Of a stretch of 64,000 bases of DNA, positions 1,297 through 63,588 are shown one piece after another. Source of the DNA: Candidatus Omnitrophota bacterium (GTDB taxonomy: Bacteria; Omnitrophota; Gorgyraeia; Aquiviventales; Aquiviventaceae); contig JACPAY010000006.1 in NCBI GenBank assembly GCA_016180575.1, forward strand, positions 10,165 to 74,164, written 5' to 3'. How positions within the stretch are numbered: the stretch's first letter is position 1; every line of letters starts with the position of its first letter. A program made the position numbers and the translations under genes. The notes below the pieces were generated by a model that searched no databases, was not told where the DNA came from, and saw only the letters and a program-made list of their open reading frames with translations.

Positions 1297-1351
1297 GGGA
1301 CACTATACCTATTTCCTGCCAGTCGTGTGCGAGAAATAGGTATAGTGTCCC
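1297..1351. repeat. 19-bp perfect-stem hairpin (GGGACACTATACCTATTTC / 17-nt loop / GAAATAGGTATAGTGTCCC)
   Basis: Read directly. Occupies most of the 70-nt dksA-like/lspA spacer and is AT-richer than its surroundings. Confidence 0.85.
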
Positions 1352-4851: not shown

Positions 4852-4890
4852 CGGTATCAGATACCGTTACCCGATTGGTATCTGATACCG
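4852..4890. repeat. hairpin repeat CGGTATCAGATACCG / GGTATCTGATACCG (family 2)
   Basis: Inverted arms separated by ~10 nt. The right arm supplies the last codons (..SRYQIPIG) and lies beside the proC stop. The same arm sequence recurs at 59601-59650. Confidence 0.85.
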
Positions 4891-6678: not shown

Positions 6679-7374
6679 ATGCCACGGCGCCATCGAGACT
6701 GGCTTCCAGGAGGCATCTACCATATCACTGTGCGAGGGAATAATCGTCAAGCTATTTTCCTCGACGACATCGACTACCAGCAATACCTCCTGGAACTTCG
6801 TCGCAGTCGGGACGAATACCCCTACCGACTTTTGGCGTTCGCGTTGATGCCGAATCACGTGCACCTGGTCATGGAGGCCTTGCCGGATGCCTGCCTCTCT
6901 GACGTCATGCATCAGGTGGGTAAGAGCTACACGCGCTACTTCAACGGACAGCACGATCGCGTCGGCCATTTGTATCAGGGCCGCTTCTACAGCAACCTGG
7001 TCAATCGAGAATCTTATCTGCTCGAGGTCACCCGTTACGTCCACCTCAATCCATTTCGAGCAAGCCTTGTGCGCCGACCTGCCGAGTACCTCTGGAGCAG
7101 CTATCGCACCTACCTTGGGCTGGAGCGTGATCTGCTGGACCTCGTGAGCCCTCAACGAATTTTGGAGTTGTTCGGCACTACGTTTGCCGAACAGATTGAG
7201 CGATACCGAAGCTTTGTCGAGCAGCTTGTAACCGAGGAGGAGAAGGCGCGGGCGTGGCTACGGAAGTTGTACCGCGAGAAGCTGATCCCCCCACAACGCT
7301 GGCTCTTTCCTCGACCATCACCTCAAAAAGTACCGGGTACTTTTTCCGCTTTGGGAAGTACCCGGTACTTTTAG
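6679..7374 (+). CDS. REP-associated tyrosine transposase (RAYT; IS200-like Y1/HUH transposase)
   Basis: HUH motif MPNHVHLVM and catalytic Tyr context TRYVHLNP. ATG at 6679. The C-terminal 17 codons run through the downstream REP doublet. The only clear plus-strand gene in the window. Confidence 0.8.
   Translation: MPRRHRDWLPGGIYHITVRGNNRQAIFLDDIDYQQYLLELRRSRDEYPYRLLAFALMPNHVHLVMEALPDACLSDVMHQVGKSYTRYFNGQHDRVGHLYQGRFYSNLVNRESYLLEVTRYVHLNPFRASLVRRPAEYLWSSYRTYLGLERDLLDLVSPQRILELFGTTFAEQIERYRSFVEQLVTEEEKARAWLRKLYREKLIPPQRWLFPRPSPQKVPGTFSALGSTRYF
7324..7374. repeat. REP doublet (inverted pair)
   Basis: CAAAAAGTACCGGGTACTTTTTC (7324-7346) and GGAAGTACCCGGTACTTTTAG (7354-7374). The loop is CGG in one and CCG in the other, i.e. 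opposite orientation. Overlaps the RAYT and ftsA stop codons. Confidence 0.85.
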
Positions 7375-42541: not shown

Positions 42542-42554
42542 GGGGTAGCTATGC

Positions 42555-43541: not shown

Positions 43542-43558
43542 ATGTTCATTTAATAGGC

Positions 43559-43760: not shown

Positions 43761-43806
43761 TGCGATACGATACTATCATATGTGTTCTCATGTGTCGATA
43801 TCAATT

Positions 43807-44136: not shown

Positions 44137-44810
44137 GGGGTAATTATTTTATGATCAGGAATATAGTTAGCAGGTACAGCATAACCCATACCTAGATTAA
44201 CGTTACTCACTAGAGCCTTATATATTTCAACTATATCGATACCATGTAAGGACAATGCCCCTACGCTCATATTTTCAATTGCTTCCAACAACCGGTTATG
44301 TTGCCTTCTCTTCAGGTTAACAACTCCCAAAACTTTCCCTTCTGTGTCCATTAAAGGACAACCGCTATTGCCAGAGTTAACTGTTCCATCGATAGCATAA
44401 GTAGTTATGCCAGCCGCATCTTTAATTATTGCAGAAATGATTCCTTGATGGGTTGTAAGGTGCTCGGAACTAAATGGATAACCTGAAAAAATTACACGCA
44501 GCCCCTCGGTAACTGGATTGATAAGACTAATTGGTAGAGGATTTCGTGTGGAGTCATCAAACTTTAGAAGCGCTAGATCGTGTTCCTCGTCCTTTATAAT
44601 AACTTTGCTTGTAATCGCGGCATTTGTGTCAGGAAATTTTATAGCAACAGCGCTGGCATCTTTTACGACGTGATTACAGGTTACCAAAATATTCTTGGTT
44701 CCAAAAACGAACCCGCTTCCAGTGCTGAAGAGTTTTTGGGCAGGGTCGAGTACGGCAAGAACAAGAGCAATGCTCGGCTTGACCTGCTTGATAACGGGGG
44801 AGTGATCCAT
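44133..44810 (-). CDS. cytoplasmic trypsin-fold (S1/Trypsin_2-like) serine protease
   Basis: Start at internal ATG 44810 (MDHSPVIKQVK...). Triad contexts TCNHVV / EHDLALLKF / GNSGCPL. No signal peptide. The upstream ORF-track residues cross the TIR and GC repeat and were rejected. Confidence 0.8.
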   Translation of the reverse strand: MDHSPVIKQVKPSIALVLAVLDPAQKLFSTGSGFVFGTKNILVTCNHVVKDASAVAIKFPDTNAAITSKVIIKDEEHDLALLKFDDSTRNPLPISLINPVTEGLRVIFSGYPFSSEHLTTHQGIISAIIKDAAGITTYAIDGTVNSGNSGCPLMDTEGKVLGVVNLKRRQHNRLLEAIENMSVGALSLHGIDIVEIYKALVSNVNLGMGYAVPANYIPDHKIITP

Positions 44811-44910
44811 CGGGATGAGGTGATAATATAGCACTAGGAAGCATGAAAGGTAAGCGAATTTTGAGCTTCGGTTGGATTGCCAAATTAGGACACTACCGGC
44901 CGGGGGGTGC

Positions 44911-45028
44911 TGTCTCAATTTGGCGGGTCCTGCCGCGCCGCCACCCCGTCGGCTGTCCTCCCCCGCCATGGCGGGGTGCGGGCAGGCGACGGGGTCCCCG
45001 GCTCTGCGTCACCCGCCAAATTGAGACA
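44911..45028. repeat. GC-rich long-hairpin repeat, copy 2 (complete, perfect 18-bp TIRs)
   Basis: TGTCTCAATTTGGCGGGT ... ACCCGCCAAATTGAGACA enclose the conserved arms and a CCCCGCC-AT-GGCGGGG apex. Ends 13 nt from the smc stop. Confidence 0.9.
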
Positions 45029-45041
45029 CGATCGGCCGGGG

Positions 45042-48000
45042 TCAGGCCGGCACGGGCGCGGCGGGTTGGGCCCCGGGCGTGAGCTTGGCGGAGAGGATCT
45101 TGGAGATGCCGGCCTCCTCCATGGTGACGCCATAGAGCGAGTCGGCCTTGGTGATGGTCTTCTTGTTGTGGGTGACGAGGATGAACTGGGAGAGCGCCAG
45201 GAACTCCTCAAGCACCCGGGTGAAGCGGTCCACGTTCGCCTCATCGAGCGGCGCATCGATCTCATCCAGGATGCAGAAGGGCGAGGGGCGGACCTTGAAG
45301 AGCGCAAAGAGGAGCGCCACCGCCGTCAGCGCCCGCTCGCCGCCGGAGAGGAGGCTGATGCTCTGGAGCCGCTTGCCTGGCGGGCGCGCCACGATGTCGA
45401 TGCCGGACTCAAGGACCTCCTCCTCATCCAGGAGGATGAGGTCGGCCTCGCCGCCGTTGAAGAGCCGCGCGTAGTAGTGCTTGAACTCCTCGGTGATGCG
45501 CGCGAAGGTCTCGCGGAACTGCGCGCGCGCCGTGCGGTTGATCTGGGTGATGGAGGCCTTGAGGTCATCGCGCGCCTGGACGAGGTCCTGCTGCTGCGTC
45601 TGGAGGAACTCGAAGCGCCGCTTCAGCTCGTCGTACTCCTCGACCGAGCCCAGGCTCACCGGGCCGATGCCCTCGAGCTTGGCCCGGAGCTTCTGGATCT
45701 GCTCGGCGTCGAATGCGCGCTGCTCCTCGGTGAGCGGCGAGGGGTTGGCCTGCTGCTCGGTCTGCACCGCCGCCTCGTCGATCTGGTAGAGCTCCCGCAG
45801 GCGCTCCACCAGGTGCGAGCGGCGGAACGCCCGCTCGGAGAGCTGCTGAGCCTGCTCCTGGATCTCGCGCATCAGGGCGGAGAGCTGCTGCTCCACCGCC
45901 AGGAAGTGCGGCAGGAGCTGGTCGCGCTTGGCTTCCTCCTCGCGCAGCGCCTGGCCGACGGTCGCGGCCTCCGCTTCGACGCGCGCGCGCTCCTCCTGGA
46001 GCTGGCGGCCGCCCGCCTCATGGGCCTCCACCTGCTGCGCAAGCTCCGCGGAGCGCGCCTGCGCATCAACCCGCTGCTTGGCCTTCGCCTCAAGCTGCTG
46101 GGCGAGCTGCGCGCGGTCTGATTCCACCTCATGGACGCGGGCCTCGAGCGCGCCGAGCCGCTCGGTCAGCGACTGCAGGCTCGCCTCGACCTGCGCCCGG
46201 GCGATCAGCAGCTCCTGCTTGCGCTGCTCGGACGCCTCGCGCGAGGCCTGTGCCTCCGCGAGCGAGCGCTCAAGCGTCTGCTGGCGGCGCTCCGCCTCCT
46301 CGACCGCCTGCCGCGCCGCCGCAAGCGACGCCTGCAACTCCGCCTGCCGCGCGGCGAGCTCCTGCATCTCGAGCTCGCCCGCCGCGCGCTCCTCATCGAG
46401 CCGCTGCATCTCCCGCGCGAGCTGCCCAAGCTGCGCATCGAGCTTGTGCAGGGCAGGCAGAGCCTGCGCAAAGCGGCCCCTGGCCGACTCCTGCTCCGTC
46501 AGGCACGTCTGCCAGGCCTGCTCCGCCTCCGCCGCCTCCGATTCGAGCCGCAGGAACTCCAGCTCCCGCGCCTGAAGCGCCGACTGTCCCTGCTCCCAGC
46601 GCTGCTTCCGTCCGAGCCGCCCGTGCGCCGGCGCGCGGGTCCCGCCGAAGCGCCACGACCGGCGGTCCCACCGGTCGCCGCGAACGCTCACGAGCCGTCC
46701 CTGCGGCGCGGCGCGGCCGGCGAGCAGCCGCTGGATGTCATCGATGACCCAGGAATCGTTCAGGAGCCAGTCCACGAGCGGCTGGTACTCCGGCTCGGCG
46801 CGCACGAACTCCTTCACGGCGCCGGTGACCCCCTCGCTGACCTCCACCCGCTCCATCGAGAGCGCCACGGGGCAGTCGGAGAGGACGAGGAATCGGCATC
46901 CCGCCAGCTGCTGCGTGCTCATCGCCTGGCGGCAGCGCGAGAGCGCCGCGCGGTCGCGCACCACGAGCGCGTCGGCCAGCGGCCCCAGCGCGGCCTCCAC
47001 CACCTCTTCATAGCCGGGCTGCGCCTGGACGAGGTCCACGAGCGGGCCGATGAGCCCGTCGATGGATTGCGTCATCAGCGACTTCACCGTGTCCGGAAAC
47101 CCTTCATAGCGCCGCCAGAGGTCCTCCCAGAGCGCGACCTGGGCGCGCTCGCTCGCCAGCTGGTCGCGCACCTGGTGGAGCCGCCCGGCCAGCTCATGGC
47201 GCCTGGCCCCGGATGCGTCGAGCGACCGCTGGGCGATGGCGAGGCTGCTTTGGAGCTCATCGTGCTGCTGCTGGAGCGTCTCGCGCTCCTGCTGGATGGC
47301 CTGGTGGCGGCGCCGCGTCTCTTCCGACTGGGCCGCCCGCTGCGCGCGGCCGGCATCGAGGCGCGCGAGCTGCGCCTCCAACCCCTGCAGCTGCGACGTC
47401 AGCTCCGCGAGCTCGTTCCGCTGGCGGGACGCCTCGGCGGCCGCCTCGAAGAGCTCGGCCTTGGCGCCGGTGAGGGCGCGCAGCGCCGCCTCGACCGCCG
47501 CGGCCAGCGTCGAGAGCTCCTCGCCGCCCTGGCTGAGCTGCCCCTGGACAGCCGCAAGCTGCGCGCGGATCTCCGATTCGGCCCCGCCGAGGCGCGAGCG
47601 CTGCTCCTCAAGCTGCCCGAGCCGCGCGCGCAGCTGGAGCTCCTCCTGCTCCAATCCCTGTGTCTGCGCCCCCAGCTCCCCGATCCAGCGCGCCTTGAGG
47701 GCGCGCTGGCTCTCGTGCTGCTCAATCTGGCTTGCGCACTCGACCGCCTTGGTGCGCAGCGCCTGGAGCTGCTGCTGGACCGCGGAGACGGCGCTGTTGG
47801 CCGCTTCAAGCGAACTCATGTGCGCGGTCTTCTGGGCCTCCCGCTCGTCGCGCTCGCGCTGCAGCGCCTGCACGCGCGCCTCGAGCTCCTTGTGGCGGCT
47901 CTCGCCGCCGCACAGCTCATCCACCGCCAGGCGCAGCTCGAGCGACTTGAGCTGCTCCCATTGCGTCTTGTACTGGCGCGCCTTGTTCGCGGCCCGCTCC

Positions 48001-53741: not shown

Positions 53742-55168
53742 CCGGCCTCCCCCTGGCGCAGGATGAGCTCAAACTCCGTGCGCTCGCCCGACGGGCTTGA
53801 GCGCCGCGTGGAGTGCTTCAGCTGCGCGGCGCCGATGCCGTCCAGCTGCTCCAGCTGCTTGAGGTACTCCAGCACCGTCTGCGTGGAGGCCGCATGGCCG
53901 CGCACCCCGACCTCCTGCCTGGCGCGCTCGAACGTCAGCGCCTCCAGCGTCACCTCGGGCGGCGTTGCGGCCAGCACGCCGGCAAGATGCCGCGCCAATT
54001 GGCGGCGGTTGCCGATCACGGTCTCGACGAGCTGGGCGGAGCGCGTCTTGTCCTGCAGTCCGCGGGCGGCCGGCTCAACCGCGGCCAGCGCCTGGTCAAG
54101 CTCCCGCGCCTGCCGCCGTTCCCGGAACGTTTGCAGGCCGAGGAGGCCGGAGCCCAGCGCCAGCACGCTCAATAAGAGGATTCCCACCGCCACCAGCTCT
54201 CGGACCTGCGCGCGATGCCGCACATGCGCGCGGACCTCCGGCGGGCTGAGGTTGAGCAGCCCGCGCAGCTCTCCGCACGCAAGCCCCCCGACCACCACGG
54301 GCGATCCCGCGGGGGGTACTGCGGCCGGCCAGCGTCCCAGCGGCGCCGCCCCATCGACCGCGGTGACCGGCAGCCCCAGCCGCTGCGCCAGCGGCTCGCG
54401 CCAGGCCGCGACGCCCGCGCCGCCGGTCAGCACGACCGAGCGCACCGACACACCCGGCAGCTCTTTCTGGATCGACGACTGGCTCCGCTCCACCTCCGCG
54501 TGGAGCAGCTCCGCGACGTCGCCTCCGGCTCCCCACTCCGCGGTCCCCTGCCCGACGCCGCGGCTCGACACGATGCGGTCCTCGCTGATCAGGACGAGGT
54601 CCGTCCGCGTGTCATCGACATGGATGACCAGCGCCGGCTCCAGGGCCGCCGCAGCGCCGAGGGCCTTCCCCGAGCGGCGGAACAGGCGGTACCACTCCAG
54701 CACCCCCCACGAGCTGAGCGTCAACAGGTCCGGGGAGAGCCCGGCCTCGCGCAGCGCGGCGACGGAGCGCTCGACGACCTCGCGCTGGCAGGCGACGACC
54801 GCCACCATGCTGAACTCCCCCTGCCGCTTCAGGACATGGAAGTCCACCACCGTCTGCTCCCGGGGATACGGCAGCTGCGCCTTGGCGTAGAGCTCGACCA
54901 TCTGGGAAAGCTCCGCGGGCTCGGCGGATGGGAACGTGACCAGCCGGCTGATGGCTTGTTCGCGCGGCACGATCCCGATGACCTGGGCCGCCGCGGTCTT
55001 GGTCGTCCGGAGCAGCCCGCGCAGCGCCGTGCCGACGCCGCTTGCGCCGAGCGGCTGGCTGTGGACGGCGCGGAGGCGAAGGTTCCGCTCGGCCCCCTCG
55101 GCCACCGCCACGCGCAGCGTCGAGCGCGTCCACTCAATCACGAGCCGACTACTCATCTTCTTGGTCAC
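53738..55168 (-). CDS. PilM-PilN fusion (GspL-like) assembly protein
   Basis: 476 aa. Actin-like ATPase-fold N-terminal region, TM helix (LVAVGILLLSVLALG), PilN-like C-terminal region. GTG at 55168 or ATG at 55156. Confidence 0.7.
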   Translation of the reverse strand: MTKKMSSRLVIEWTRSTLRVAVAEGAERNLRLRAVHSQPLGASGVGTALRGLLRTTKTAAAQVIGIVPREQAISRLVTFPSAEPAELSQMVELYAKAQLPYPREQTVVDFHVLKRQGEFSMVAVVACQREVVERSVAALREAGLSPDLLTLSSWGVLEWYRLFRRSGKALGAAAALEPALVIHVDDTRTDLVLISEDRIVSSRGVGQGTAEWGAGGDVAELLHAEVERSQSSIQKELPGVSVRSVVLTGGAGVAAWREPLAQRLGLPVTAVDGAAPLGRWPAAVPPAGSPVVVGGLACGELRGLLNLSPPEVRAHVRHRAQVRELVAVGILLLSVLALGSGLLGLQTFRERRQARELDQALAAVEPAARGLQDKTRSAQLVETVIGNRRQLARHLAGVLAATPPEVTLEALTFERARQEVGVRGHAASTQTVLEYLKQLEQLDGIGAAQLKHSTRRSSPSGERTEFELILRQGEAG

Positions 55169-55192
55169 ATGTCACAGGGTCACAACGTCACA
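55164..55192. repeat. four direct TGTGAC repeats at 7-8 nt spacing
   Basis: GTCACA on the plus strand at 55164, 55171, 55179 and 55187. Fills the gspK-pilM/N spacer and overlaps the GTG start. Confidence 0.8.
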
Positions 55193-55205
55193 GGACACGG
55201 CGTCA

Positions 55206-56150
55206 TCACAGCTCCCGCCACGCGATGATGCACGGCTCAGGCCTCCCCTCGCCGCATCCCGCGCGCCGGACGACCGCTGCGACACGCGCCCGCGCCGCCG
55301 GGCGGGCCGTCACCCCTTCCGCGGCCACCGTGAACACCGTCGAGGCGACGCCGAACAGATTCGAGCTCAACAGGCTGCCGTCCTCCGTGCCGGTCAAGTC
55401 CACCCCCGCGGCATCCTTGAGCGTCTGGAGGATGGCCAGCCCCGATTCGGTGAAGATGCCGTCCTGCTCGTGTGACGCGGTCCCATCCGGGCCCTCCCGG
55501 TACGCCAGGACAAGCTGCACGGCGTTCTCGGTGAGCCCCGCCGCACGGAGCACCTCCGGTGTCGCGGTGTTCAGGTTCAGCGGCTCGGTCGCTGCCGCAT
55601 ACGGGCTCGTGTGCCCCTCCAGGATCTCGTAGCGTTCCTGCGTCATGCCGGGCAGGTCGGCCAGCTCCTCGGGCGCCGTGAACGGTCCGTTCTTCGCGAA
55701 ATACGGCGGGGTTCCCGCCGGTGAGTCCTCGGCGGGGTCCGGCTCATCGCGCGCATCGACGATGGCCTGCGCCAGGGTGTCATCCCCCGTCAGCCGGCCC
55801 AGCTGCTCGCGCGTCGCGTCGTTCAGGCGCAGCTTGCGCCCCTCGTCGCTGATCTCCACCCTGATCTCCGCCTCGTTCGGAGCGGGCGCGATCCACTCCC
55901 CGGACCACTCATCCCCCAGCCAATCATACACCTTGCCGTCCGATTCCGCCGCGTCGCGGGCCAGCCGCTCGCTCGCCAGATAGACCCCGCTCCTCGCCAG
56001 GGCCATCGCCCGCTCGCGGGCGAGGCGATGTTTCGTCAGCCGCACGTCGAGCGAGAGCTGCCGGCCGACCGACACCGCCAGCACCGAGAGCACCGCGACG
56101 AGCGACAGGCTGATGATGAGGACGGAGCCGCAACACCCGGCGCGTCTCAT
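55206..56150 (-). CDS. gspK: type II secretion minor pseudopilin GspK
   Basis: ATG at 56150 (MRRAGCCGSVLIISLSLVAVLSVLA). HhH region (LNLNTATPEVLRAAGL). The ORF-track N-terminal 47 aa were rejected. Confidence 0.75.
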   Translation of the reverse strand: MRRAGCCGSVLIISLSLVAVLSVLAVSVGRQLSLDVRLTKHRLARERAMALARSGVYLASERLARDAAESDGKVYDWLGDEWSGEWIAPAPNEAEIRVEISDEGRKLRLNDATREQLGRLTGDDTLAQAIVDARDEPDPAEDSPAGTPPYFAKNGPFTAPEELADLPGMTQERYEILEGHTSPYAAATEPLNLNTATPEVLRAAGLTENAVQLVLAYREGPDGTASHEQDGIFTESGLAILQTLKDAAGVDLTGTEDGSLLSSNLFGVASTVFTVAAEGVTARPAARARVAAVVRRAGCGEGRPEPCIIAWREL

Positions 56151-56854
56151 GACGGCGGCGGACCGGGAGAAACCGCGCTGCCGGTGGGGAGGCTCATCCG
56201 GCGCGCGACCTCGCCGCCGGCTCCCAGGTCGAGCGTCACCTCGACGAGGCGAGGCAGCGCGCGCTCCGGCTGCTCCCAGCGATCGCGCCATTCAAGCGGC
56301 GCCGTGGCGTCCGGCGGCAGCTGGGCGTAGCGGAGAATCATCTGCTCGCAGCCGGACAGGATCAGCTCCGGCGCGGGCGAGAACCGCGCGCGCGACTCCC
56401 CGAGCGACTGGCTCGTCCGCCACAGGCCGCGGACGCCGCCGCGCTCCTCGCACCGGTAGGTCACGAACCGGACCGCGGGCAGCGGCCGGCGGCTTGTGGG
56501 GGGCAGCACCGTGAACCAGGCCAGCGCCGCCTCGTCGAACCGGGGCCGCGGCAGCGTGCCCGCCTCCTCCCCGTAGGACGATTCCCGGGTGTCGTAGATG
56601 GCCGCGTTCGCCAGCTCGCGAGAAAGGCGGCTCAACGCAACGTGCCGCCGCTGCACCGCTTCCCCGCTCGCCGCGGCGCGCCGCCAGACGGTGACGCCTC
56701 CGCGCAGGTGCGCCCCCAGTCCGACGACCAGCACCGCGATCATCACCGAGGCGATGAGCAGCTCCACCAGCGTGAACGCCAGAAATCGGGGACAGCCACT
56801 AATTTTCCCGTGACCCGGCTGTAGAAAATTAGTGGCTGTCCCCGATTTTCGCAT
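56147..56854 (-). CDS. gspJ: type II secretion minor pseudopilin GspJ-like
   Basis: 235 aa with a prepilin-type hydrophobic N-terminus (FTLVELLIASVMIAVLV). An unusually long 26-aa leader is encoded by the 25-bp-stem hairpin. The ATG directly abuts the gspI stop (TAGATG). Confidence 0.65.
   Translation of the reverse strand: MRKSGTATNFLQPGHGKISGCPRFLAFTLVELLIASVMIAVLVVGLGAHLRGGVTVWRRAAASGEAVQRRHVALSRLSRELANAAIYDTRESSYGEEAGTLPRPRFDEAALAWFTVLPPTSRRPLPAVRFVTYRCEERGGVRGLWRTSQSLGESRARFSPAPELILSGCEQMILRYAQLPPDATAPLEWRDRWEQPERALPRLVEVTLDLGAGGEVARRMSLPTGSAVSPGPPPS
56782..56850. repeat. 25-bp perfect-stem hairpin (family 3: AAATCGGGGACAGCCACTAATTTTC)
   Basis: Left arm 56782-56807, 16-nt loop, right arm 56824-50. 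A single arm copy recurs at 62444-62469. Confidence 0.9.
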
Positions 56855-57271
56855 CTAGTCGAGCCACTCGTTGAGCCACACCGCGTCCACCGTCAGCGAG
56901 GTGCCGCGCGCCTGGTCCCGCGCGACGGTCAGCGACACGTCGCTGGCGAGCGGGGCGCCGGCCTCATCCGTCAGGTCCGCGCGCAATACCGCCTCGAGGG
57001 TCCAGCGGTAGTCCTCGTGCGGCGGGTCAAACGTCCCGGCGCGATCCGTGGGGAGCGGGCGGCCGGCGAGCAATTCGGCCTCCAGCTCGAGCAGCTTCCC
57101 CTGCGCCAAGGCGAGGAGCGCCTCATGCGCTTCCACCGCCCGGATCGCGCCGAGCTGGCTGGCGAACCCGCGGCTGATGAAGGCGAGGCCCACCGCGATG
57201 ACGACGGCGGCGAGCGTCGCCTCAACGAGCAGCAGGCCCTGGCACGAGCCCCACGTGGCCGGTCGTCTCAT
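56855..57271 (-). CDS. gspI: type II secretion minor pseudopilin GspI-like
   Basis: 138 aa with a prepilin N-terminus (QGLLLVEATLAAVVIAVGLAFI). Confidence 0.7.
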   Translation of the reverse strand: MRRPATWGSCQGLLLVEATLAAVVIAVGLAFISRGFASQLGAIRAVEAHEALLALAQGKLLELEAELLAGRPLPTDRAGTFDPPHEDYRWTLEAVLRADLTDEAGAPLASDVSLTVARDQARGTSLTVDAVWLNEWLD

Positions 57272-57710
57272 CCACTGTCGCGGTCATGGCATGCGCCTGG
57301 AAGCTCACCGTGAGCGTCGCCGGCTCGCTCGTCCCTTCGGGGAAGAAGCGCACGCAGCTGCACTCGACCGGCGCATCGTCGAGCAAGAGCTGGACGGAGA
57401 AGTCCTCCGGCAGCGCACTACTCCGAAACAGCTCCGTGGCGGGCGCGGTCTCCTCGGGAACCTCCTCGACGCGGGCGCGGCGCGCAGCGGCATCCCAGAC
57501 CCAGACCGTCTCCCCGCCGCTTGCCACCGCCTGCTCATGGGCCGCGCGCAGCAGCTGGGCCAGCTCGGAAGCGGCCTGCTCCACGCGCAGCCGGAGCGCC
57601 GTCTGCTGCAGCCTCGGGGCGGCGGCCGCCACGAGGATGATGAGCACCACCGCGACCAGCGCAAGCTCGATGAGGGTGAACCCGGGCCGGCTCAGAGTTG
57701 GCTTCAACAC
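57222..57710 (-). CDS. gspH: type II secretion minor pseudopilin GspH-like
   Basis: GTG at 57710 gives a canonical leader, (M)LKPTLSRPG|FTLIELALVAVV. The ORF-track start at 57971 crosses the structured spacer and was rejected. Confidence 0.6.
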   Translation of the reverse strand: MLKPTLSRPGFTLIELALVAVVLIILVAAAAPRLQQTALRLRVEQAASELAQLLRAAHEQAVASGGETVWVWDAAARRARVEEVPEETAPATELFRSSALPEDFSVQLLLDDAPVECSCVRFFPEGTSEPATLTVSFQAHAMTATVDETTGHVGLVPGPAAR

Positions 57711-57975
57711 CTCGCGCGAGCCGCGTTGCGTGCGCCACGGGCCAGGGCCAAGGAACGACGACGAAGGCGTATCAGGAACCGCGATACGTCGAGGAGGAGT
57801 GACGCCGGCCCTGGCCCCGTGCCGCCGCAACCCGAAGGGCTGGGCGAACTGGCGTCGCCGTGCATCGTTGCTCGTCGTCGCCGTATCGCTCCCTGCTGAT
57901 ACGGCTTCCTCCTCGCGCCTCGCGCGGCTCGCCATTGCGCCCAGCGCGGCCGCGGGAGGTGTTGAAGCCAACTCT
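57694..57975 (-). other. 282-nt rod-like imperfect palindrome closed by a perfect 20-bp stem (gspG-gspH intercistronic)
   Basis: AGAGTTGGCTTCAACACCTC (57694-57713) is the exact reverse complement of 57956-57975. The interior shows further arm-to-arm complementarity, e.g. CGTATCAG/CTGATACG. Confidence 0.85.
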
Positions 57976-58387
57976 AATCCCAGTTGGTCACGTCGTCCTT
58001 CCCCGCCTGCCCGTCGGAGCCCAGCGAGAAGAGATCGTAGTCCTGGTTGTGCTGCGAGGCTTTCTTATACTCGTAGGGGCGGCCCCAGGGATCCTTCGGC
58101 AGCCCCCGCTTCAGGTACGGGCCGTTCCACTTCGCCCGCGCCTCATCGCTGAGGTGCGACGGCGCCTCGCGGGCGGTCAGCGCCTCCAGGGAATCGGGGT
58201 ACTGGCCGGCGTCCAGCTCGTAGAGGTCGAGCGCCACGCCGATCGAGGCGATGTCCGACTTCGCGCGGGCGATCTTCGCCTGCTCGGTCCGGCCGGCGAG
58301 GCGCGGGACCACCATCGCCGCCAGCACGCCGATGATGACGACCACCAGCATCAACTCGACCAGCGTGAACCCCCGCTTCTGCGTCAT
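57974..58387 (-). CDS. gspG: type II secretion major pseudopilin GspG
   Basis: ATG at 58387 overlaps the gspF stop (ATGA). MTQKRG|FTLVELMLVVVIIGVLAAMVVPRL...DPWGRPYEY. 137 aa. Confidence 0.9.
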   Translation of the reverse strand: MTQKRGFTLVELMLVVVIIGVLAAMVVPRLAGRTEQAKIARAKSDIASIGVALDLYELDAGQYPDSLEALTAREAPSHLSDEARAKWNGPYLKRGLPKDPWGRPYEYKKASQHNQDYDLFSLGSDGQAGKDDVTNWD

Positions 58388-59601
58388 TGGACCCCCAATC
58401 CGATTTGAAAGACCGGCAGCAGCATCGCCAGCACGATCCCCAGCACCATCGTGCCGACGAGGAGCAGGAGGACGGGCTCCAGGATTGTCGTCAGCGTCCG
58501 CATCGTCCGGTCGAGCTCCCGCTCGTAGGCGGCGGCGACCTTCAGGAGGGCGGCGTCCACCGTCCCGGACTCCTCGCCGACCGCCACCATGTTGCTGACG
58601 AACACCGGGAACTTGCGCGTGGCGGCCAGCGCCGCCGCGAGGCTGGAGCCGTCGCGCACCGCGTCGTGGACCCGCCCGACCGCCGCGCGCAGCGTCACGT
58701 TGGCGAGGTTCTCGGCCACGACCTCGAGGGCCTGGAGGATGGGCACGCCCTGTCCGAGCAGGACCCCGAGGTTGCGCGCAAACCGCGCCGTCTCCACCTG
58801 GCGCACCAGGGCGCCGAGCGCGGGGATGCCGATGAGCGCGCGGTCGACCGCCGCCCGGCCGGCGGGGCTGGCGTGCCAGAGGCGCAGCGCCCAGGCCGCC
58901 GCGGTCCCGCCAAACAGCAGCGCCCACCACCACCGCGTCACCGCCCCGCTCACCGCCAAGAGGACCCGCGTCGGCAGCGGCAGCACCTGGCCGGTCTCGA
59001 GCAGGACGAGCGAGAGCTTCGGGATGACGTACGCCATCAGGAAGGCGGTCATCGCCACGGCGACGCCCAGCACGAAGAGCGGATAGGCCGAGGCGCTCGC
59101 GATGCGGCTGCGCAGCTCGGCATCGGATTCCCCCAGCTCGGCGAGCCGGTTCAGCGCCCGCTCAAGCCCCCCGCCCACCTCGCCGGCCCTGACCAGGCTG
59201 CGGTAGAGCGGCGGGAAGACGCGCGGGTGGTCGCCGAGGGCGTCGCTCAGCGGCCGGCCGTCGCGCACGGAGGCGGCGAGCGACTCGATGACTCGCCGCA
59301 GCGCCGCGTGCTCGGTCTGCTTGGCCAGGAGCGTCAGCGCGCTGAGGAGCGGCAGCCCGCCGCCCAGGAGGTCGGCGAGCTGGTGCGTGGTGTAGGCGAG
59401 GGTGCGGGAGGAAATCCGGCGGGGCAAGGTGCCCAGCGGCGAACCGGCCGGGGCGCCGACTTCCGCGATGGAGATGGGGAAGACCCCTTCACGGCCGAGC
59501 CGGCTGAGCGCCGACGCTTCGGTGTCGGCCTCGATCGTGCCTTCGCGGAGGTGCAGGGCGTGGTCCTTGGCTCGATACGCGAACCGCGGCATACCTCTCA
59601 T
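58384..59601 (-). CDS. gspF: type II secretion / type IV pilus platform protein GspF
   Basis: 405 aa, two T2SF repeats, three TM segments. Start is ATG at 59601 or 59592. Confidence 0.9.
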   Translation of the reverse strand: MRGMPRFAYRAKDHALHLREGTIEADTEASALSRLGREGVFPISIAEVGAPAGSPLGTLPRRISSRTLAYTTHQLADLLGGGLPLLSALTLLAKQTEHAALRRVIESLAASVRDGRPLSDALGDHPRVFPPLYRSLVRAGEVGGGLERALNRLAELGESDAELRSRIASASAYPLFVLGVAVAMTAFLMAYVIPKLSLVLLETGQVLPLPTRVLLAVSGAVTRWWWALLFGGTAAAWALRLWHASPAGRAAVDRALIGIPALGALVRQVETARFARNLGVLLGQGVPILQALEVVAENLANVTLRAAVGRVHDAVRDGSSLAAALAATRKFPVFVSNMVAVGEESGTVDAALLKVAAAYERELDRTMRTLTTILEPVLLLLVGTMVLGIVLAMLLPVFQIGLGVQ

Positions 59602-59650
59602 GGTATCAGATACCTACGATATGGGGAAGCGTTGTAGGTATCTGATACCA
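59601..59650. repeat. 16-bp perfect-stem hairpin (family 2: TGGTATCAGATACCTA)
   Basis: Arms 59601-59616 and 59635-59650 with an 18-nt loop. Fills the gspE-gspF spacer. The arm end coincides with the A of the gspF ATG. Confidence 0.9.
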
Positions 59651-59654
59651 TGCC

Positions 59655-61157
59655 TTACGTGACGCGGAGGACCTCTTGGGGGGTGGTGAGCCCCTGCACG
59701 ATCCTCTGCCACCCGTCCTGCCGGAGCGTCCGCATCCCGCCGAGGCGCTGGGCGGCCTGCGCGATCTCGTGGGACGAGGAGCGCTTGAGGACGAGCTCCT
59801 GGATCGGCTCGCTGACGAGCAGGAACTCGTAGATGGCGGTCCGGCCCTTGTAGCCGGTGCCCTTGCAGGCGGGACAGCCGCGCCCGTACTGGAGCGCGCG
59901 CGGCAGCTCGGCGACGCCGAACTCCTCCAGCAGCCCGGGCTCCGGGGGACGCTCCTCCCGGCAGGCGAGGCAGACGAGGCGCACGAGGCGCTGCGCGACG
60001 AAGCACAGGACCGAGGAGGCGACAAGATACGGCTCGATGCCCATGTCCAGGAGCCGCGTCACCCCGCCCGCCGCGTTGTTCGTGTGGAGCGTGGAGAAGA
60101 CGAGGTGCCCGGTCAGGGCGCTGCGGATGGTGATCTCGGCGGTCTCCGGGTCCCGGACCTCGCCCACCATCATGATGTCGGGGTCGTGGCGGAGCATCGA
60201 CCGCAGCCCCTGGGCGAAGGAGAAGCCGATCTTCGTGTGGACCTGGAGCTGCGTGATGCCGGCGAGCTGGTACTCGATGGGGTCCTCGATCGTCAGGATC
60301 TTCACGTTCGGGGCGTTGAGCTTCGAGAGGCAGGCATAGAGCGTCGTCGTCTTGCCGGAGCCGGTGGGGCCGGTCACGAAGATGATGCCGTGCGGCTTCT
60401 GGATGAGCTGGACGAGCTGCTCCCGGTGGTCCGGGCCAAGGCCCAGCTGCTCGAGGCTGAAGAGCATCTGGGAGGACAGCAGCCGGATCTCCACCGCCTC
60501 GCCGAAGCTCGTCGGCAGCACCGAGATGCGCAGGTCCAGGTCCTCCCCGTCGAGGCCGACCTTGATGCGGCCGTCCTGCGGCAGCCGCCGCTCCGCGATG
60601 TCGAGCTGCGCCATCACCTTGATCCGGGAGACGATCGCCTGGTGGAGCCGCACGAGGTCCGCCGGGGTCGAGATCTCGTACATGACCCCGTCGATGCGCT
60701 GGCGCACCCGGAGCGTCTGCCCGAACGGCTCGATGTGGATGTCGGTCGCGCGGTCGCGCGCCGCGGAGAGGATGAGCTGGTTGACGAACGAGATGACGGA
60801 GGCGTCGTCGGGCTTGGCGGTCAGGTCCTCCGTCGCGGCCGAGGCCGGGGCGGCGGCCTCGTGCAATCCGGTGTCGAGGAGCCGCTCCACCGCCGAGGCC
60901 CCGATCCCGTAGTGCCGCTGGATGGCCTCGCGGATCTCGACGGGGTCGGCGAGCGCGGGCCGGACCTCGCAGCCGAGGAGCAACTTCAGCTCATCGAGCG
61001 TCTGCACGTCGAAGGGGTCGGCGACGGCGATCTGCAGCGCGCCGTCCGCGAAGGCGACCGGCATGAGCTGGTAGTGGCTGGCGAACCTCGGCGACACCTT
61101 GGCCAGCACCTCGGGAGGGATCCGCGCGCCGGCCAGGCGCACCCGCTCAATTGACAT
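59655..61157 (-). CDS. gspE: type II secretion / type IV pilus assembly ATPase GspE
   Basis: 500 aa. T2SSE N-domain, Walker A (GPTGSGKTTT), Asp/His boxes, tetracysteine motif (CLAC...CPAC). Confidence 0.9.
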   Translation of the reverse strand: MSIERVRLAGARIPPEVLAKVSPRFASHYQLMPVAFADGALQIAVADPFDVQTLDELKLLLGCEVRPALADPVEIREAIQRHYGIGASAVERLLDTGLHEAAAPASAATEDLTAKPDDASVISFVNQLILSAARDRATDIHIEPFGQTLRVRQRIDGVMYEISTPADLVRLHQAIVSRIKVMAQLDIAERRLPQDGRIKVGLDGEDLDLRISVLPTSFGEAVEIRLLSSQMLFSLEQLGLGPDHREQLVQLIQKPHGIIFVTGPTGSGKTTTLYACLSKLNAPNVKILTIEDPIEYQLAGITQLQVHTKIGFSFAQGLRSMLRHDPDIMMVGEVRDPETAEITIRSALTGHLVFSTLHTNNAAGGVTRLLDMGIEPYLVASSVLCFVAQRLVRLVCLACREERPPEPGLLEEFGVAELPRALQYGRGCPACKGTGYKGRTAIYEFLLVSEPIQELVLKRSSSHEIAQAAQRLGGMRTLRQDGWQRIVQGLTTPQEVLRVT

Positions 61158-61182
61158 ACCGATACCTTACCACACCTCGACG

Positions 61183-61210
61183 GAAAAAAGGCACCGGTTC
61201 CTATTTTTTC
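61183..61210. repeat. AT-clamped palindrome variant (A6-GGCACCGGTTCCTA-T6)
   Basis: GGAAAAAAGGCACCGGTTCCTATTTTTTC starts at the fabF stop codon, in the 51-nt fabF-gspE spacer. Confidence 0.8.
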
Positions 61211-62462
61211 AACCGCTGAACTTCCGGAACACCACGGTGGCGTTGTGGCCCCCGAAGCCGAGCGAGTTGGAGACCACCGCTTCCACCGGCGCCTTGCGCG
61301 CCTCATTGGGGATGTAGTCGAGGTCGCAGGCCGGGTCCGGGTGCTCGTAGTTGATGGTCGGCGGCATCACGCCGTCCCGGATGGCGAGCACGGAGATGAC
61401 CCCCTCGACCCCGCCGGCCCCCCCGATGAGGTGGCCCATCATCGATTTGGTGGAGGAAACCGCCACCCGCTTGGCGGCGTCCTTGAACGTCGCCTTGATG
61501 GCCAGCGTCTCGATCTTGTCGTTGAGGTCCGTGGAGGTCCCGTGCGCGTTGAGGTAGCTCACCTGGTCGGGGCGCATCCGCGCGTCCTCCAGCGCCATCG
61601 CCATCGCCTTGGCCGCCCCCGCCCCCTCCGGGTCGGGCGCGGTCATGTGGAAGGCGTCCGCCGTCGCCCCGTAGCCGGCCATCTCGGCGTAGATTCTGGC
61701 CCCCCGCCGCTTGGCGTGCTCCAGCTCCTCCAGGACCAGGACGCCGGCGCCCTCGCCGATGACGAAGCCGTCCCGCTCCTTGTCGAAGGGGCGGCTCGCC
61801 TTGGCCGGCTCGTCGTTGCGGCGGGAGAGCGCCATGAGGGCGCAGAATCCGCCCACCGTCAGGGGCGTGATGCAGCTTTCGGTGCCGCCGCCCAGCATGA
61901 CGTCGGCGAGGCCCCGCTGGATGATGCGGAACGCCTCCCCGAGCCCGTGCGCGCCCGAGGCGCAGGCGCTCGTCGTGCAGAAGTTCGGGCCCTTCCATCC
62001 CAGGTCCATCGCCACCTGGCCCGGCGCCATGTTGCAGATGAGCATCGGGATCATGAAGGGGCTGAGCCGCTTCGGCCCCTTCGCCACGAGGGTGCTGTGC
62101 TGCTGCTCGATCAAATGCATGCTCCCGATGCCGGTGCCGATGACGACCCCGAACCGGAAGGGATCGGCGGGTGCTCCCGTGAGCCCGGCGTCCGCCACCG
62201 CCTGCTTGCCGGCGGCGATGGCGAACTGCACGAACCGCTCGCTCCGCTTGATCTCCTTGGGGCTGAGGTACTGCGCCGGGTCGAACCCCTTCACCTCGGC
62301 GGCGATTCGGGATTCAAGGGCGCCCGCATCGAAGCAGCTGATGGGGCCGACGCCGCTCGTCCCGGCCAGCAGCGAGCGCCACATGGCGGGCACGTCGTTG
62401 CCCACCGGCGTCACCGCCCCAAGCCCTGTCACCACCACTCGTCGAAAATCGGGGACAGCCAC
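61209..62462 (-). CDS. fabF: 3-oxoacyl-ACP synthase II
   Basis: 417 aa. KAS II active-site Cys (TSACASG) and His motifs ([17 protein letters not shown]). GTG start preceded by GGAG. Confidence 0.9.
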
Positions 62463-62469
62463 TAATTTC
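62444..62469. repeat. single arm of family-3 repeat overlapping the fabF start
   Basis: GAAAATCGGGGACAGCCACTAATTTC matches the arms at 56782-56850, one T short in the T-run. The fabF GTG (62462) and first 6 codons lie inside it. Confidence 0.85.
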
Positions 62470-62483
62470 TCCTTGGCTTCGCT

Positions 62484-62517
62484 CTAAAACACGAACGTCC
62501 GCTCACAAGCGGACGTC
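62484..62517 (-). terminator. hairpin + U-run downstream of acpP (terminator/attenuator)
   Basis: 9-bp stem ACGTCCGCT/AGCGGACGT with a 4-nt loop (62495-62516), followed on the coding strand by CGUGUUUUAG. Confidence 0.55.
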
Positions 62518-62544
62518 CGCACACTGCACAGATTGTACGGCTGG

Positions 62545-62793
62545 CTACTTCGCGCCGGCAGTCTTCGACTCGATGTACTTGATGGCCTCGCCCACCGAGC
62601 TCATCTTCTCGGCGTCCTCGTCGGGGATCTCGATGCCGAACTCCTCCTCCAGCGCCATGACGAGCTCGACCGTGTCGAGCGAATCCGCCCCGAGGTCCTC
62701 GATGAAGGAGGCCGCGTCCGTGACCTCCTCCAGCTTGACGCCCAGCTGCTCGGCGATGATCGCCCGCACCCGATCCGCGACAGCCTCTGCCAT
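62545..62793 (-). CDS. acpP: acyl carrier protein
   Basis: ATG at 62793. 82 aa with the phosphopantetheine site [13 protein letters not shown]. Confidence 0.9.
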
Positions 62794-62829
62794 ATACAAC
62801 CCTCCTTGTTTCGGCCTGAGCAAATGCCC

Positions 62830-63588
62830 TTACATCGCGAGGCCGCCGTCCACCACCAGCACGTGGCCGGTGATGTACCGCGCGGCATCGCTGACCAAGA
62901 AGAGCGCGGCGCGCGCCACGTCCAGCGGCTCGCCCAGCGTCCCCATCGGGATCGCCTCAAGCAGCCGCTGCCTCGCCTGCTCCGGCAGCGCCTCGGTCAT
63001 CTCGGTCTTGATGAAGCCCGGCGCGATGGCGTTGCAGGTGATGCCCCGCCTCGCCAGCTCCTTGGCCACGGCCTTGGTCAGCCCGATGATGCCGGCCTTG
63101 GAGGCGGCGTAGTTCGCCTGGCCGGGATTCCCAATGAGCCCCACGATGGAGGCGATGCTGACGATCCGGCCCCGCCGGGCTTTCAGCATGTGCTTGGCCA
63201 CGGCCCGGGTGCAGAGGAAGGTGCCCTTCAGGTTGATGGCGAGCACCCGATCCCACTGCGCATCATCCATGCGGATGAGCAATCCATCCTTGGTGATGCC
63301 CGCGTTGTTGATGAGTATATCGATTCTCCCCAGCTTGTCAAGCACTTTTGCCACGCCGTCCTCGACCTGTTTTCCGTCGGTGACATCGACGGAAAGCCCC
63401 TCGGCCCGCCGGCCCAGGGCGCGCAGCTCCTGGGCGGTTTGTTCCAGCAGCTCGGGGTTCACGTCAAAGAGCGCCACGTCCGCCCCGGCCTGGGCAAACA
63501 CCAGGGCGATCTCCCGCCCGATCCCCCGGGCGCCCCCGGTCACGATGGCGACCTGGCCGGTGAGGGGGGTGGTTGTCGCGTCACTCAT
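62830..63588 (-). CDS. fabG: 3-oxoacyl-ACP reductase
   Basis: 252 aa SDR (VTGGARGIG, YAASKAG, NAIAPGFI). Confidence 0.9.
   Translation of the reverse strand: MSDATTTPLTGQVAIVTGGARGIGREIALVFAQAGADVALFDVNPELLEQTAQELRALGRRAEGLSVDVTDGKQVEDGVAKVLDKLGRIDILINNAGITKDGLLIRMDDAQWDRVLAINLKGTFLCTRAVAKHMLKARRGRIVSIASIVGLIGNPGQANYAASKAGIIGLTKAVAKELARRGITCNAIAPGFIKTEMTEALPEQARQRLLEAIPMGTLGEPLDVARAALFLVSDAARYITGHVLVVDGGLAM

Follow-up and report, generated by a model that had tools for sequence, protein, structure and literature searches.

The gspJ-like minor pseudopilin gene in the window (the whole 64-kb stretch of Omnitrophota DNA analysed here) contains within its leader codons a perfect hairpin that, judged by its sequence, is best read as a REP doublet of REPIN-like type. 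We think it probable that this is a mobile doublet lying in-frame in the gspJ leader, that it is read through from an ATG at the gspI stop and that the resulting leader is removed. The gspJ-like ORF (235 aa, 56147..56854, minus strand; 88 homologues) begins at an ATG (56854-56852) that, as the initial annotation had stated, directly abuts the TAG (56857-56855) of a gspI-like pseudopilin ORF (138 aa, 56855..57271, minus strand; L006 gene map). The leader codons occupy 56777-56854 and are followed immediately by FTLVELL, with Phe+1 at 56776-56774. The prepilin N-terminus, a Pfam T2SSJ domain (E = 4.7e-8) and the position in a gsp operon with the gene order E-F-G-H-I-J-K-PilM-M identify the product as a minor pseudopilin GspJ, with Ala at −1. 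The Pfam N_methyl match to residues 26-46 is sub-threshold (18.3 bits against a 21.2-bit cut-off). All prepilins share the FTLVELL pattern; a metagenome scan with the gspJ alignment gave, among the matches listed, three loci, all of them remote relatives.

The hairpin occupies 66 nt (56783..56848, minus strand), that is 22 codons, and encodes leader residues 3-24, starting 6 nt past the gspI-like stop. Its arms (56783-56807 and 56824-56848), each of 25 nt, are 100% complementary and enclose a loop of 16 nt; on the mRNA strand the arms read AAATCGGGGACAGCCACTAATTTTC and GAAAATTAGTGGCTGTCCCCGATTT, and the loop reads TACAGCCGGGTCACGG. The arm sequence was matched by none of 100 shuffles. Folding of a 121-nt RNA that includes the hairpin (56760-56880, minus strand) gave −67 kcal/mol (z = −8.1), and the 66-nt hairpin folded as single-stranded DNA gave −30.8 kcal/mol (z = −11.4). 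These results bear out both the perfect 25-bp hairpin and the very stable structure at the 5′ end of the cistron that had been proposed earlier.

Perfectly identical arms are expected of a very recent duplication or of an artefact, and an atypically long, Ala-ended leader could likewise belong to a local inverted duplication, an assembly chimera or a lesion that makes gspJ a pseudogene. The data contradict such an origin, which we consider highly improbable. The exact gspJ-like protein is encoded on seven Logan contigs, each assembled independently, and comparison of the DNA revealed no difference among six of them over 190 nt around the hairpin; being identical in independent assemblies, the hairpin is not an assembly artefact. 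Moreover, the same sequence recurs at fabF, 5.6 kb away, and in other MAGs, so that the supposed local duplication proves to be a doublet of a dispersed, transposase-associated repeat. The pseudogene alternative is at odds with an intact ORF, the presence of the T2SSJ domain and a dN/dS of 0.44 against the closest orthologue, by which measures the gene is intact and constrained. The Ala at −1, earlier taken for an anomaly, is a lineage trait that is also seen in the insert-free P0007 (MRRA/F, the slash preceding Phe+1) and in at least 8 of 72 homologues. Because it is found in orthologues without an insert it is not a consequence of the insertion, and it counts against a duplication or lesion.

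Each hairpin arm corresponds to one unit of a dispersed repeat, the core of which is GTGGCTGTCCCCGAT. Three units of this family are present in the window: the doublet and a single unit at the fabF start (62446..62470, minus strand; GGAGAAATTA-GTG-GCT-GTC-CCC-GAT-TTT-CGA). From this singlet FabF (ORF 61209..62462) takes its GTG start and the additional residues AVPDF; 93 of 120 FabF orthologues start M[KR]R/VVVTGLG, and the MAVPDFRR start occurs in the FabF of the window alone. A 23-mer is conserved exactly in five contigs of four other MAGs, labelled as other phyla, and these five contigs hold 23 further units. The core occurs in these MAGs as direct and inverted copies in intergenic DNA. The copies inspected in L001, L002 and L004 lie outside recognisable genes, and L002 and L004 contain the same kind of doublet with other loops. 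In L003, core arrays of five and six units in opposite orientation (6404-6567, minus strand, and 7435-7622, plus strand) flank a 234-aa ORF that matches Pfam Y1_Tnp (5e-14) and scores 73 bits against NCBIfam REP_Tyr_transpos, just under the cut-off of 80, versus 21 bits against IS200. The dispersed core, together with the inverted arrays flanking a Y1 (RAYT-type) gene, is the basis for reading the hairpin as a REP doublet; the RAYT association of this repeat family comes from one locus, L003, in another organism. A phmmer search of the L003 RAYT against PDB sequences gave no match at E ≤ 0.01. The search for its homologues returned more than 7,900 proteins, and none of the top matches was labelled Omnitrophota.

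The window has a RAYT gene of its own (6679..7374, plus strand), which scores 93.2 bits against REP_Tyr_transpos (equivalog, cut-off 80) and is 35% identical to the L003 RAYT (E = 6e-30). The REP on either side of it, AAAAGTACCGGGTACTTTT (6491-6507, 6519-6535, 7326-7342 and 7354-7370), is a different one, and on this ground the gene was rejected as the cognate of the hairpin's family; no cognate RAYT flanked by the hairpin's repeat was found within the 64-kb window. On the strength of these gene and repeat assignments, the host genome harbours REP/RAYT systems. Folded singly, two of the window units gave z = −1.4 and +0.8. Six of eight single units folded were indistinguishable from shuffles, the exceptions being in L005 (z = −4.0) and at 7600-7634 of L003 (z = −2.1). 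Covariation in the unit flanks was marginal, with one cleanly covarying pair and the observed score reached by 34 of 500 shuffles. Support from folding and covariation was thus too weak for a model in which each unit forms a stem-loop with a conserved loop, and this was set aside.

Several other identities were examined for the repeat. An Rfam scan of the window at gathering thresholds returned one tRNA and no other match, and in E-value mode the repeat copies in L001-L005 gave only a far-sub-threshold microRNA model on the L004 hairpin, which is best read as chance. A full-text literature search for the core sequence retrieved unrelated eukaryotic papers only, and the doublet pattern had no match among viral contigs. 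Inspection of the core GTGGCTGTCCCC as a σ54 promoter showed that its spacing does not fit TGGCAC-N5-TTGC. An adapter or vector artefact was also rejected, since the core is present in several unrelated MAGs whose contig names differ in style, suggesting independent assemblies.

To place the element in its evolutionary context we compared 11 orthologous gspI-gspJ junctions, a partly biased sample in that five were chosen through ORFs called long. The repeat-free junctions of L012 and L015 are compact (11 and 13 nt) and encode leaders of 4-5 residues, MMRRG/FTLVELL and MRRA/FTFVELL respectively. Taking 66 nt out of the window gene leaves ATG CGA / CTG GCG TTC, which reads MRLA/FTL. Because the repeat-free orthologues have leaders of 4-5 residues, we regard the 66 nt as an in-frame insertion, one of the two alternatives suggested before this comparison was made; the same long leader is not shared by these orthologues. 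The leader is therefore unusually long relative to L012 and L015, but this part of the earlier description does not extend to the homologues at large, since leaders of at least 12 aa are called in 45 of 72. In the orthologue group the long called leaders are often encoded by other hairpin repeats, and in terms of sequence the gspJ-like leader is one case of a wider pattern. Orthologous sites with and without an element, as expected of mobile DNA, are thus represented by the compact L012 and L015, the 66-nt insert of the window and the other inserts of its relatives. In addition, P0003 differs from P0092 and P0093 (one 90% cluster) by a 42-nt in-frame indel.

Hairpin elements, with energies of −27 to −105 kcal/mol, are present at 7 of the 11 junctions (the window, L013, L014, L016, L022, L024 and L025), and no recognisable sequence is common to any pair of them; the four junctions without a hairpin are those of L012, L015, L023 and L026. 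At all 11, L016, L022, L023 and L026 included, no stop interrupts the frame between Phe+1 and a start that lies at the gspI stop or overlaps it; among them are four junctions for which the gene callers had picked a later start. When inserts were shuffled, a given frame remained open in 14-68% of cases, before applying the 1-in-3 chance of phase. Net charge was zero or positive in six of seven leaders taken from their start codon, and no hydrophobic stretch was apparent in the leaders on inspection, suggesting that they would suit a cytoplasmic N-terminus.

From these comparisons we propose that the hairpin is a non-autonomous palindromic element whose relatives would be moved by a Y1/HUH RAYT that works on hairpins in single-stranded DNA. 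A copy would have landed after codon 2 and ahead of the final two codons of a short ancestral leader, approximately M-R-(L)-A/FTLVELL, adding 66 nt that kept the phase and were free of stops. Translation of gspJ would then most likely begin at the ATG abutting the gspI stop and read through the element, giving a basic, non-hydrophobic leader of 26 residues. Prepilin peptidase would cut before Phe+1, leaving the mature pseudopilin unchanged, and the leader may thus have provided a permissive landing slot in an operon otherwise almost without non-coding DNA.

The choice of start codon bears directly on this proposal, since the hairpin could instead be effectively intercistronic, with gspJ starting downstream at a CTG two codons, or an ATT nine codons, before Phe+1; the stretch from the ATG to the hairpin would then be an untranslated or incidentally open 5′ structure. 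In line with such a start, the closest relative, L016 (79% identity), has an ATG at the position of the CTG and a called start of MA/FTLVELL, an ATG in the 3′ arm of the L022 hairpin gives a normal 10-aa leader (MRPGPNFLGG/FTL), and leaders of 2-5 aa (MA, MG, MRG) are called in several homologues. However, the window has no ATG, GTG or TTG from the hairpin to Phe+1, and its CTG, on sequence and fold, immediately adjoins the base of a stem of about −50 kcal/mol and lacks a Shine-Dalgarno sequence. The open upstream frame at every junction also argues against it, as does the gspG of L016, which keeps the conserved MTQK start upstream of its own insert. A start after the hairpin is hence disfavoured, and we judge it unlikely; the ATG at the gspI stop is the more probable start.

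If translation begins there, a stem of about −50 kcal/mol from +7 of the gspJ cistron should block independent loading of 30S subunits, so that gspJ would depend, through translational coupling, on ribosomes that come from gspI. The stem may also serve as a barrier to 3′-exonucleases or as an RNase III site in the polycistronic mRNA.

The hairpin is not the only palindromic element in this operon, which carries such elements at the E-F, G-H and I-J junctions. A perfect hairpin doublet (19/16/19 nt, GTAGGTATCTGATACCATG; 59599..59652, minus strand) fills the gspE-gspF spacer, the called gspF ATG being the last triplet of its 3′ arm; as single-stranded DNA it folds at −17.7 kcal/mol (z = −8.8). 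At the gspG-gspH junction lies a nested palindromic element of 292 nt (57689..57980, minus strand; RNA −188.9 kcal/mol, z = −7.7), with terminal inverted repeats of 30 nt that match at 90% and contain a perfect 20-mer, GAGGTGTTGAAGCCAACTCT. One end of it holds the gspG stop and the other encodes the gspH leader (...EVLKPTLSRPG/FTLIELAL), which is thus a further element-encoded leader in the window, and the gspH frame is open across all 292 nt. Counting the spacer doublet, the window has three further perfect doublets where cistrons meet; the other two are a 19/17/19-nt doublet (GGGACACTATACCTATTTC; 1297..1351) between two minus-strand ORFs and a 14/11/14-nt doublet (CGGTATCAGATACC; 4852..4890), which belongs to one family with the gspE-gspF element and from the sequence lies between two co-directional minus-strand genes. 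Among the relatives, hairpins are found in the leaders of gspG in L022 and of gspH in L024, L025 and L026, and L016 GspG reads MTQK, a 27-aa insert and then G/FTLVELM, compared with MTQKRG/FTLVELM in the window.

This recurrence raises the possibility that the hairpin is more than a tolerated mobile insertion and has been selected as a regulatory RNA structure, recruited repeatedly with REP-like repeats as raw material; it might act as an intra-operon attenuator, be a site for RNase III or other processing, influence mRNA stability or couple cistrons so as to set pseudopilin stoichiometry. Strong hairpins that share no recognisable sequence at 7 of 11 orthologous junctions would fit such selection, as would those that, in relatives and in the window, occupy the gspE-gspF spacer and the 5′ ends of the gspG and gspH genes. 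A-runs and T-runs also flank the stem (AAAATCGGGG...CCCCGATTT); for the REPINs of Pseudomonas, co-option for transcription attenuation has been put forward as an explanation of such runs (PMC3337134). On the other hand, a hairpin is missing from 4 of the 11 junctions, and the window has similar doublets at cistron junctions that are unrelated. No selected function would be needed to account for the recurrence if repeat activity is high and the slot permissive. As an intrinsic (Rho-independent) terminator the hairpin was rejected: a consensus scan of 55000-63000 did not flag it, its loop is 16 nt long and its tail (GAUUUCUGGCG; GAUUUCUG) is a poor U-run, which also weighs against a regulatory role. 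We therefore view selection for regulation as a minority possibility that nevertheless carries some weight. A stronger version, in which the 5′ ends of gspG, gspH and gspJ and the T2S cistron junctions of Omnitrophota systematically recruit palindromic repeats as translated hairpin gates that set pseudopilin stoichiometry, is speculative and in our view rather improbable. Each hairpin would then enforce the hand-over of ribosomes from the preceding cistron, or offer a processing or RAYT-binding site, and the encoded peptide would be discarded by prepilin peptidase; if so, domesticated REPIN-like elements would be at work inside coding sequence.

The preferred reading, a mobile REP doublet in the gspJ leader, has implications beyond this gene. 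It would place a RAYT-type repeat doublet in-frame in a prepilin leader, against the definition of REPs and REPINs as extragenic. The same leader slot is held by different hairpin elements in orthologues, and the pattern recurs in gspG and gspH. Pseudopilin gene starts are likely to be misplaced by gene callers and annotators in these genomes. Among the loci checked there are called leaders of 25-40 residues that a repeat encodes, and there are starts called at an internal Met for which an in-frame start further upstream is open. To our knowledge, most known cases of palindromic insertions lying in-frame within genes come from Rickettsia. Assuming that it is cleaved, the leader seems to offer mobile DNA a natural 'safe harbour' within compact operons.

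Among known systems, the closest likeness is to the REPINs or REP doublets mobilised by RAYT proteins in Pseudomonas fluorescens SBW25 and enterobacteria (Bertels & Rainey; PMC3116915, PMC3337134). As in REPINs, the gspJ-like element consists of two inverted copies of a short repeat with a short spacer, pairs near-perfectly into a hairpin and is flanked by A-runs and T-runs. Single copies also occur, as at fabF; in L003 the repeat stands in inverted orientation on either side of a Y1/HUH transposase gene; and several families, each with its own sequence, share one genome. However, REPINs are defined as extragenic, whereas the gspJ copy lies in-frame within codons 3-24, where it would be translated, and the fabF singlet overlaps a start codon. 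The element is also shorter than SBW25 REPINs (66 nt against about 89 nt), and its identical core occurs in MAGs assigned to different phyla, in contrast to the mostly vertical inheritance described for REPIN/RAYT systems; unlike REPINs, it has no cognate RAYT in sight within the 64-kb window. Classical REPs have an imperfect palindromic core, while the single unit of the hairpin shows little palindromy.

Rickettsia palindromic elements (RPEs) are about 150 bp long (Ogata et al., 2000, summarised in PMC10969869). Like them, the gspJ element is a palindromic mobile repeat that sits in-frame in a coding gene and adds a peptide without destroying the protein, a likeness shared with intragenic ERIC/MITE elements. 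Such ERIC/MITE insertions within genes were reportedly described by Delihas in 2007. The resemblance to RPEs is a functional analogy only, the host here being an omnitrophote. RPEs encode a conserved peptide and occur in unrelated metabolic genes, whereas the 66-nt gspJ element lies in a leader expected to be cleaved off, and several unrelated elements reuse this one slot in orthologues.

Type IVb prepilins such as TcpA and BfpA have leaders of 15-30 residues that are processed by prepilin peptidase. The gspJ-like product similarly has a long leader before a conserved hydrophobic N-terminus, and its processing is predicted. In contrast to type IVb leaders, which are conserved in their families, its length reflects a recent, lineage-specific insertion, orthologues having 4-5 residues, and its −1 residue is Ala rather than Gly.

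Finally, REP/BIME hairpins are intercistronic stabilisers of mRNA, as in E. coli malE-malF, and REPs near stop codons are said to stall ribosomes (reportedly by Liang and Deutscher in 2015). The gspJ element would likewise place a stable REP hairpin in a predicted polycistronic transcript, 6 nt past the upstream stop. Unlike those hairpins, it lies inside the downstream coding sequence, such that every ribosome translating gspJ would have to unwind it.

The gspJ-like ORF (56147..56854, minus strand, 235 aa) opens with an ATG (56854-56852) that directly abuts the TAG (56857-56855) of the 138-aa gspI-like ORF on the same strand. An inverted repeat with arms at 56783-56807 and 56824-56848 (25 nt each, 100% complementary, 16-nt loop) lies within its leader-coding region, so that both the perfect 25-bp hairpin and the gspJ start immediately after the gspI stop are confirmed as initially annotated. 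This 66-nt element constitutes codons 3-24 of a 26-codon leader, which is followed by FTLVELLIASVMIAVLVVGLG. Since the arm sequence gave no match in 100 dinucleotide shuffles, and both the RNA (56760-56880, minus strand; -67 kcal/mol, z = -8.1) and the 66 nt as single-stranded DNA (-30.8 kcal/mol, z = -11.4) fold far more stably than expected, the hairpin is beyond chance. The exact 235-aa GspJ, whose source is a Candidatus Omnitrophica MAG, is encoded by seven independently assembled Logan contigs, and in the six that were fetched the 190 nt surrounding the hairpin match the window exactly, which contradicts an assembly artefact. A private duplication is likewise contradicted by arm copies elsewhere in the window and in other MAGs. 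The notion of a pseudogene is contradicted by a Pfam T2SSJ domain (N_methyl, at residues 26-46, falls below threshold with 18.3 bits versus a 21.2-bit cutoff) and by a dN/dS of 0.44 against L016, the locus of the closest relative; gspJ is intact and constrained, in an operon ordered gspE-F-G-H-I-J-K-pilM-gspM.

A third arm copy lies at 62446-62470, at the start of fabF, and five contigs (L001-L005) from four other MAGs, with the labels Syntrophobacteria, Omnitrophota, Thermodesulfobacteriota and 'bacterium', contain the 23-mer AAATTAGTGGCTGTCCCCGATTT without a mismatch. Their non-coding DNA repeats the core GTGGCTGTCCCC(GAT) in both direct and inverted orientation, and L002 and L004 have doublets of like kind with differing loops. 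The consensus from 27 units in register is gA[A/G]AT[T/G]A-GTGGCTGTCCCC-GAT[T/C]TC; a single unit folds weakly, and flank covariation is marginal. In L003, opposed arrays of five and six units (contig positions 6404-6567, minus, and 7435-7622, plus) flank a 234-aa ORF that matches Pfam Y1_Tnp (E = 5e-14, above cutoff) and scores 73 bits against the NCBIfam REP-associated tyrosine transposase (RAYT) model (cutoff 80) and 21 bits against IS200. A RAYT gene flanked by its REPs, small palindromic repeats, is by definition the signature arrangement (PMC3337134), and the array-ORF-array layout of L003 matches it. This putative RAYT family is large, with over 7,900 members at E <= 1e-20. Rfam scans gave no family that matches the repeat, and a full-text literature search found its core sequence in no paper.

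No cognate RAYT of the hairpin's family is present in the 64-kb window. The window does encode a RAYT (6679-7374; NCBIfam REP_Tyr_transpos, 93 bits, above cutoff). It shares 35% identity with the L003 protein, and each side of it bears two copies of another palindromic REP, AAAAGTACCGGGTACTTTT (6491-7370). Three more perfect doublets of similar build lie between co-directional cistrons, so far as the flanking ORFs are readable: GGGACACTATACCTATTTC at 1297-1351 (19/17/19 nt), between two minus-strand ORFs, and those at 4852-4890 and 59599-59652, which belong to one family. Because its arm is dispersed and transposase-associated, and because the window contains a RAYT and similar doublets, we read the gspJ hairpin as a REP doublet resembling a REPIN. 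Units like the REP of the window RAYT (AAAGTGCC[T/A]GGCACTTT) were also seen in the L013 gspJ and L022 gspG leaders of relatives, and look-alikes of the 1297-1351 doublet (GGGAC[A/C/G]C[T/A]TCTATTTTT...) in the L015 gspE-gspF spacer, the L022 gspG leader and the L026 gspG-gspH junction.

REPIN/RAYT systems are described as being mostly inherited vertically. It is thus unexpected that the core GTGGCTGTCCCCGAT and the 23-mer containing it are identical in the L001-L005 MAGs assigned to different phyla, which could reflect horizontal spread or contig mis-binning. The Omnitrophota contig L002, which also carries a REP doublet copy, matches the c-di-GMP-I-GGC riboswitch aptamer at 1321-1485 with a score close to threshold (54.9 bits; gathering score, 59 bits; E = 1.5e-10). 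Within the window, G+C falls to 0.56-0.60 at 34000-38000 and 42000-46000, compared with about 0.70 elsewhere; these stretches, one of which contains the only tRNA (36527-36600, minus), may be islands or acquired DNA.

Orthologous gspI-gspJ junctions were compared at 11 loci with DNA, by the distance from the gspI stop to Phe+1, the predicted first residue of the mature pseudopilin, and by junction MFE. The distance is 11 nt in L012 (74% identity; 0 kcal/mol; MMRRG/FTLVELL, with an ATGA overlap; in pseudopilin leaders the slash marks the predicted prepilin peptidase site) and 13 nt in L015 (60% identity; -1.2 kcal/mol; MRRA/FTFVELL), whereas the window has 78 nt (-52.6 kcal/mol) including the 66-nt doublet. 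Removal of these 66 nt leaves ATG CGA joined to CTG GCG TTC, or MRLA/FTL, like the short leaders of repeat-free orthologues. The suggested in-frame insertion of the repeat into the leader is therefore upheld, and the two repeat-free orthologous junctions, L012 and L015, do not share the long leader. The leader had also been called unusual in ending in Ala; its length is indeed due to the insert, but Ala -1 also occurs in insert-free orthologues (P0007 and others) and is hence a lineage trait. Other junctions hold other sequences: a simple repeat with no hairpin in L023 (50 nt, -4.8 kcal/mol), one arm of an L014-type repeat in L026 (50 nt, -9 kcal/mol), hairpins in L025 (74 nt, -44 kcal/mol), L014 (98 nt, -27 kcal/mol) and L024 (124 nt, -53 kcal/mol), GGAAAGTGCCTGGCACTTTTTGG in L013 (75 nt, -33 kcal/mol), a AAAATTGGGACCGGGTCCCAATTTT doublet in L022 (92 nt, -49 kcal/mol) and a GC-rich palindrome of about 111 nt in L016 (79% identity; 119 nt, -105 kcal/mol). 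On these comparisons the hairpin is an insertion into a short leader, in a slot reused by other elements in orthologues. Unrelated hairpins recur at the same junctions, which suggests a selected regulatory role, although high repeat activity and a permissive site account for it equally well, and four of the 11 junctions have no hairpin.

At all 11 junctions no stop codon interrupts the frame between Phe+1 and a start codon that lies at the gspI stop or overlaps it, even in L016, L022, L023 and L026, where gene callers picked a later start. Shuffled inserts are stop-free in a given frame just 14-68% of the time, and a phase match is also needed. An in-frame indel of 14 residues distinguishes the leader of P0003 from those of P0092/P0093, all in one 90% cluster. 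A conservative protein-level screen of 88 homologues found that 9 of 45 long called leaders fit palindromic coding (p <= 0.02), where about one would be expected by chance. Although the sample of junctions is small and partly biased, its trend indicates that a translated leader is selected for.

The leader-coding segment of gspJ is occupied by a mobile-type palindromic repeat, in frame and stop-free. We infer that ribosomes initiate at the ATG that is coupled to the gspI stop codon and translate the whole element, giving a basic, non-hydrophobic 26-residue leader (the 22 element-encoded residues carry a net charge of +3). Some weight must be given to a start after the hairpin, since L016 has an ATG at the position of the window's CTG; the window, however, has no canonical start there, and the candidate position lies directly against the stem base. 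With initiation at the coupled ATG, the leader would remain in the cytoplasm until prepilin peptidase cut it off, and mature GspJ would be unchanged; this would account for the use of leaders as landing slots in an operon of otherwise overlapping genes. The stem starts at +7 of the cistron, 6 nt past the gspI stop, so from established principles it should impede 30S subunits that bind independently and leave gspJ reliant on ribosomes terminating at gspI. On similar grounds the 25-bp perfect duplex could plausibly be cut by RNase III or block exonucleases. An intrinsic terminator is unsupported, as the hairpin was not flagged in a terminator scan.

Hairpin repeats also occur in the leaders of L022 gspG and of L024, L025 and L026 gspH, and the L016 major pseudopilin reads MTQK[TTQSAECGMRSAEWYSFPIPHSAFRIRT]G/FTLVELM compared with MTQKRG/FTLVELM in the window. 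The gspG-gspH junction of the window's minus-strand operon is filled by a 292-nt nested palindromic element (57689-57980; RNA MFE -189 kcal/mol, z = -7.7) with 30-nt terminal repeats at 90%, including the perfect 20-mer GAGGTGTTGAAGCCAACTCT. One end contains the gspG stop and the other codes the gspH leader ...EVLKPTLSRPG/FTLIELAL; the gspH frame is open across the entire element, and hence gspH is called at 237 aa, versus 152-189 aa in relatives. Spacer hairpins between gspE and gspF are found in L015 and L016, and in the window this spacer is filled by the 54-nt doublet GTAGGTATCTGATACCATG (59599-59652; perfect, 19/16/19 nt). The ATG called for gspF forms the final three bases of the doublet's 3' arm, and the second ATG (MPRFAYRAKD...) looks the likelier start. 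At fabF (61209..62462, minus), the single unit of the gspJ-hairpin family provides the GTG start, with a GGAG Shine-Dalgarno just 5' of it, and five extra residues, AVPDF. The 417-aa FabF begins MAVPDFRR/VVVTGLG, whereas 93 of 120 orthologues begin M[KR]R/VVVTGLG and most have 411-412 aa. These cases bear on start-site annotation in Omnitrophota.

Overall, the gspJ hairpin works like a REPIN, in its doublet and hairpin structure and its insertion polymorphism, but unlike a REPIN this copy is not extragenic. The nearest precedents for in-frame palindromic insertion, as given in PMC10969869, are Rickettsia palindromic elements and intragenic ERIC elements. What appears to be new is the location of a REP-type element in a prepilin leader predicted to be cleaved, the reuse of one slot by hairpin elements that are unrelated to one another, in orthologues as well as in gspG, gspH and gspJ, and a REP unit that gives fabF its start codon.
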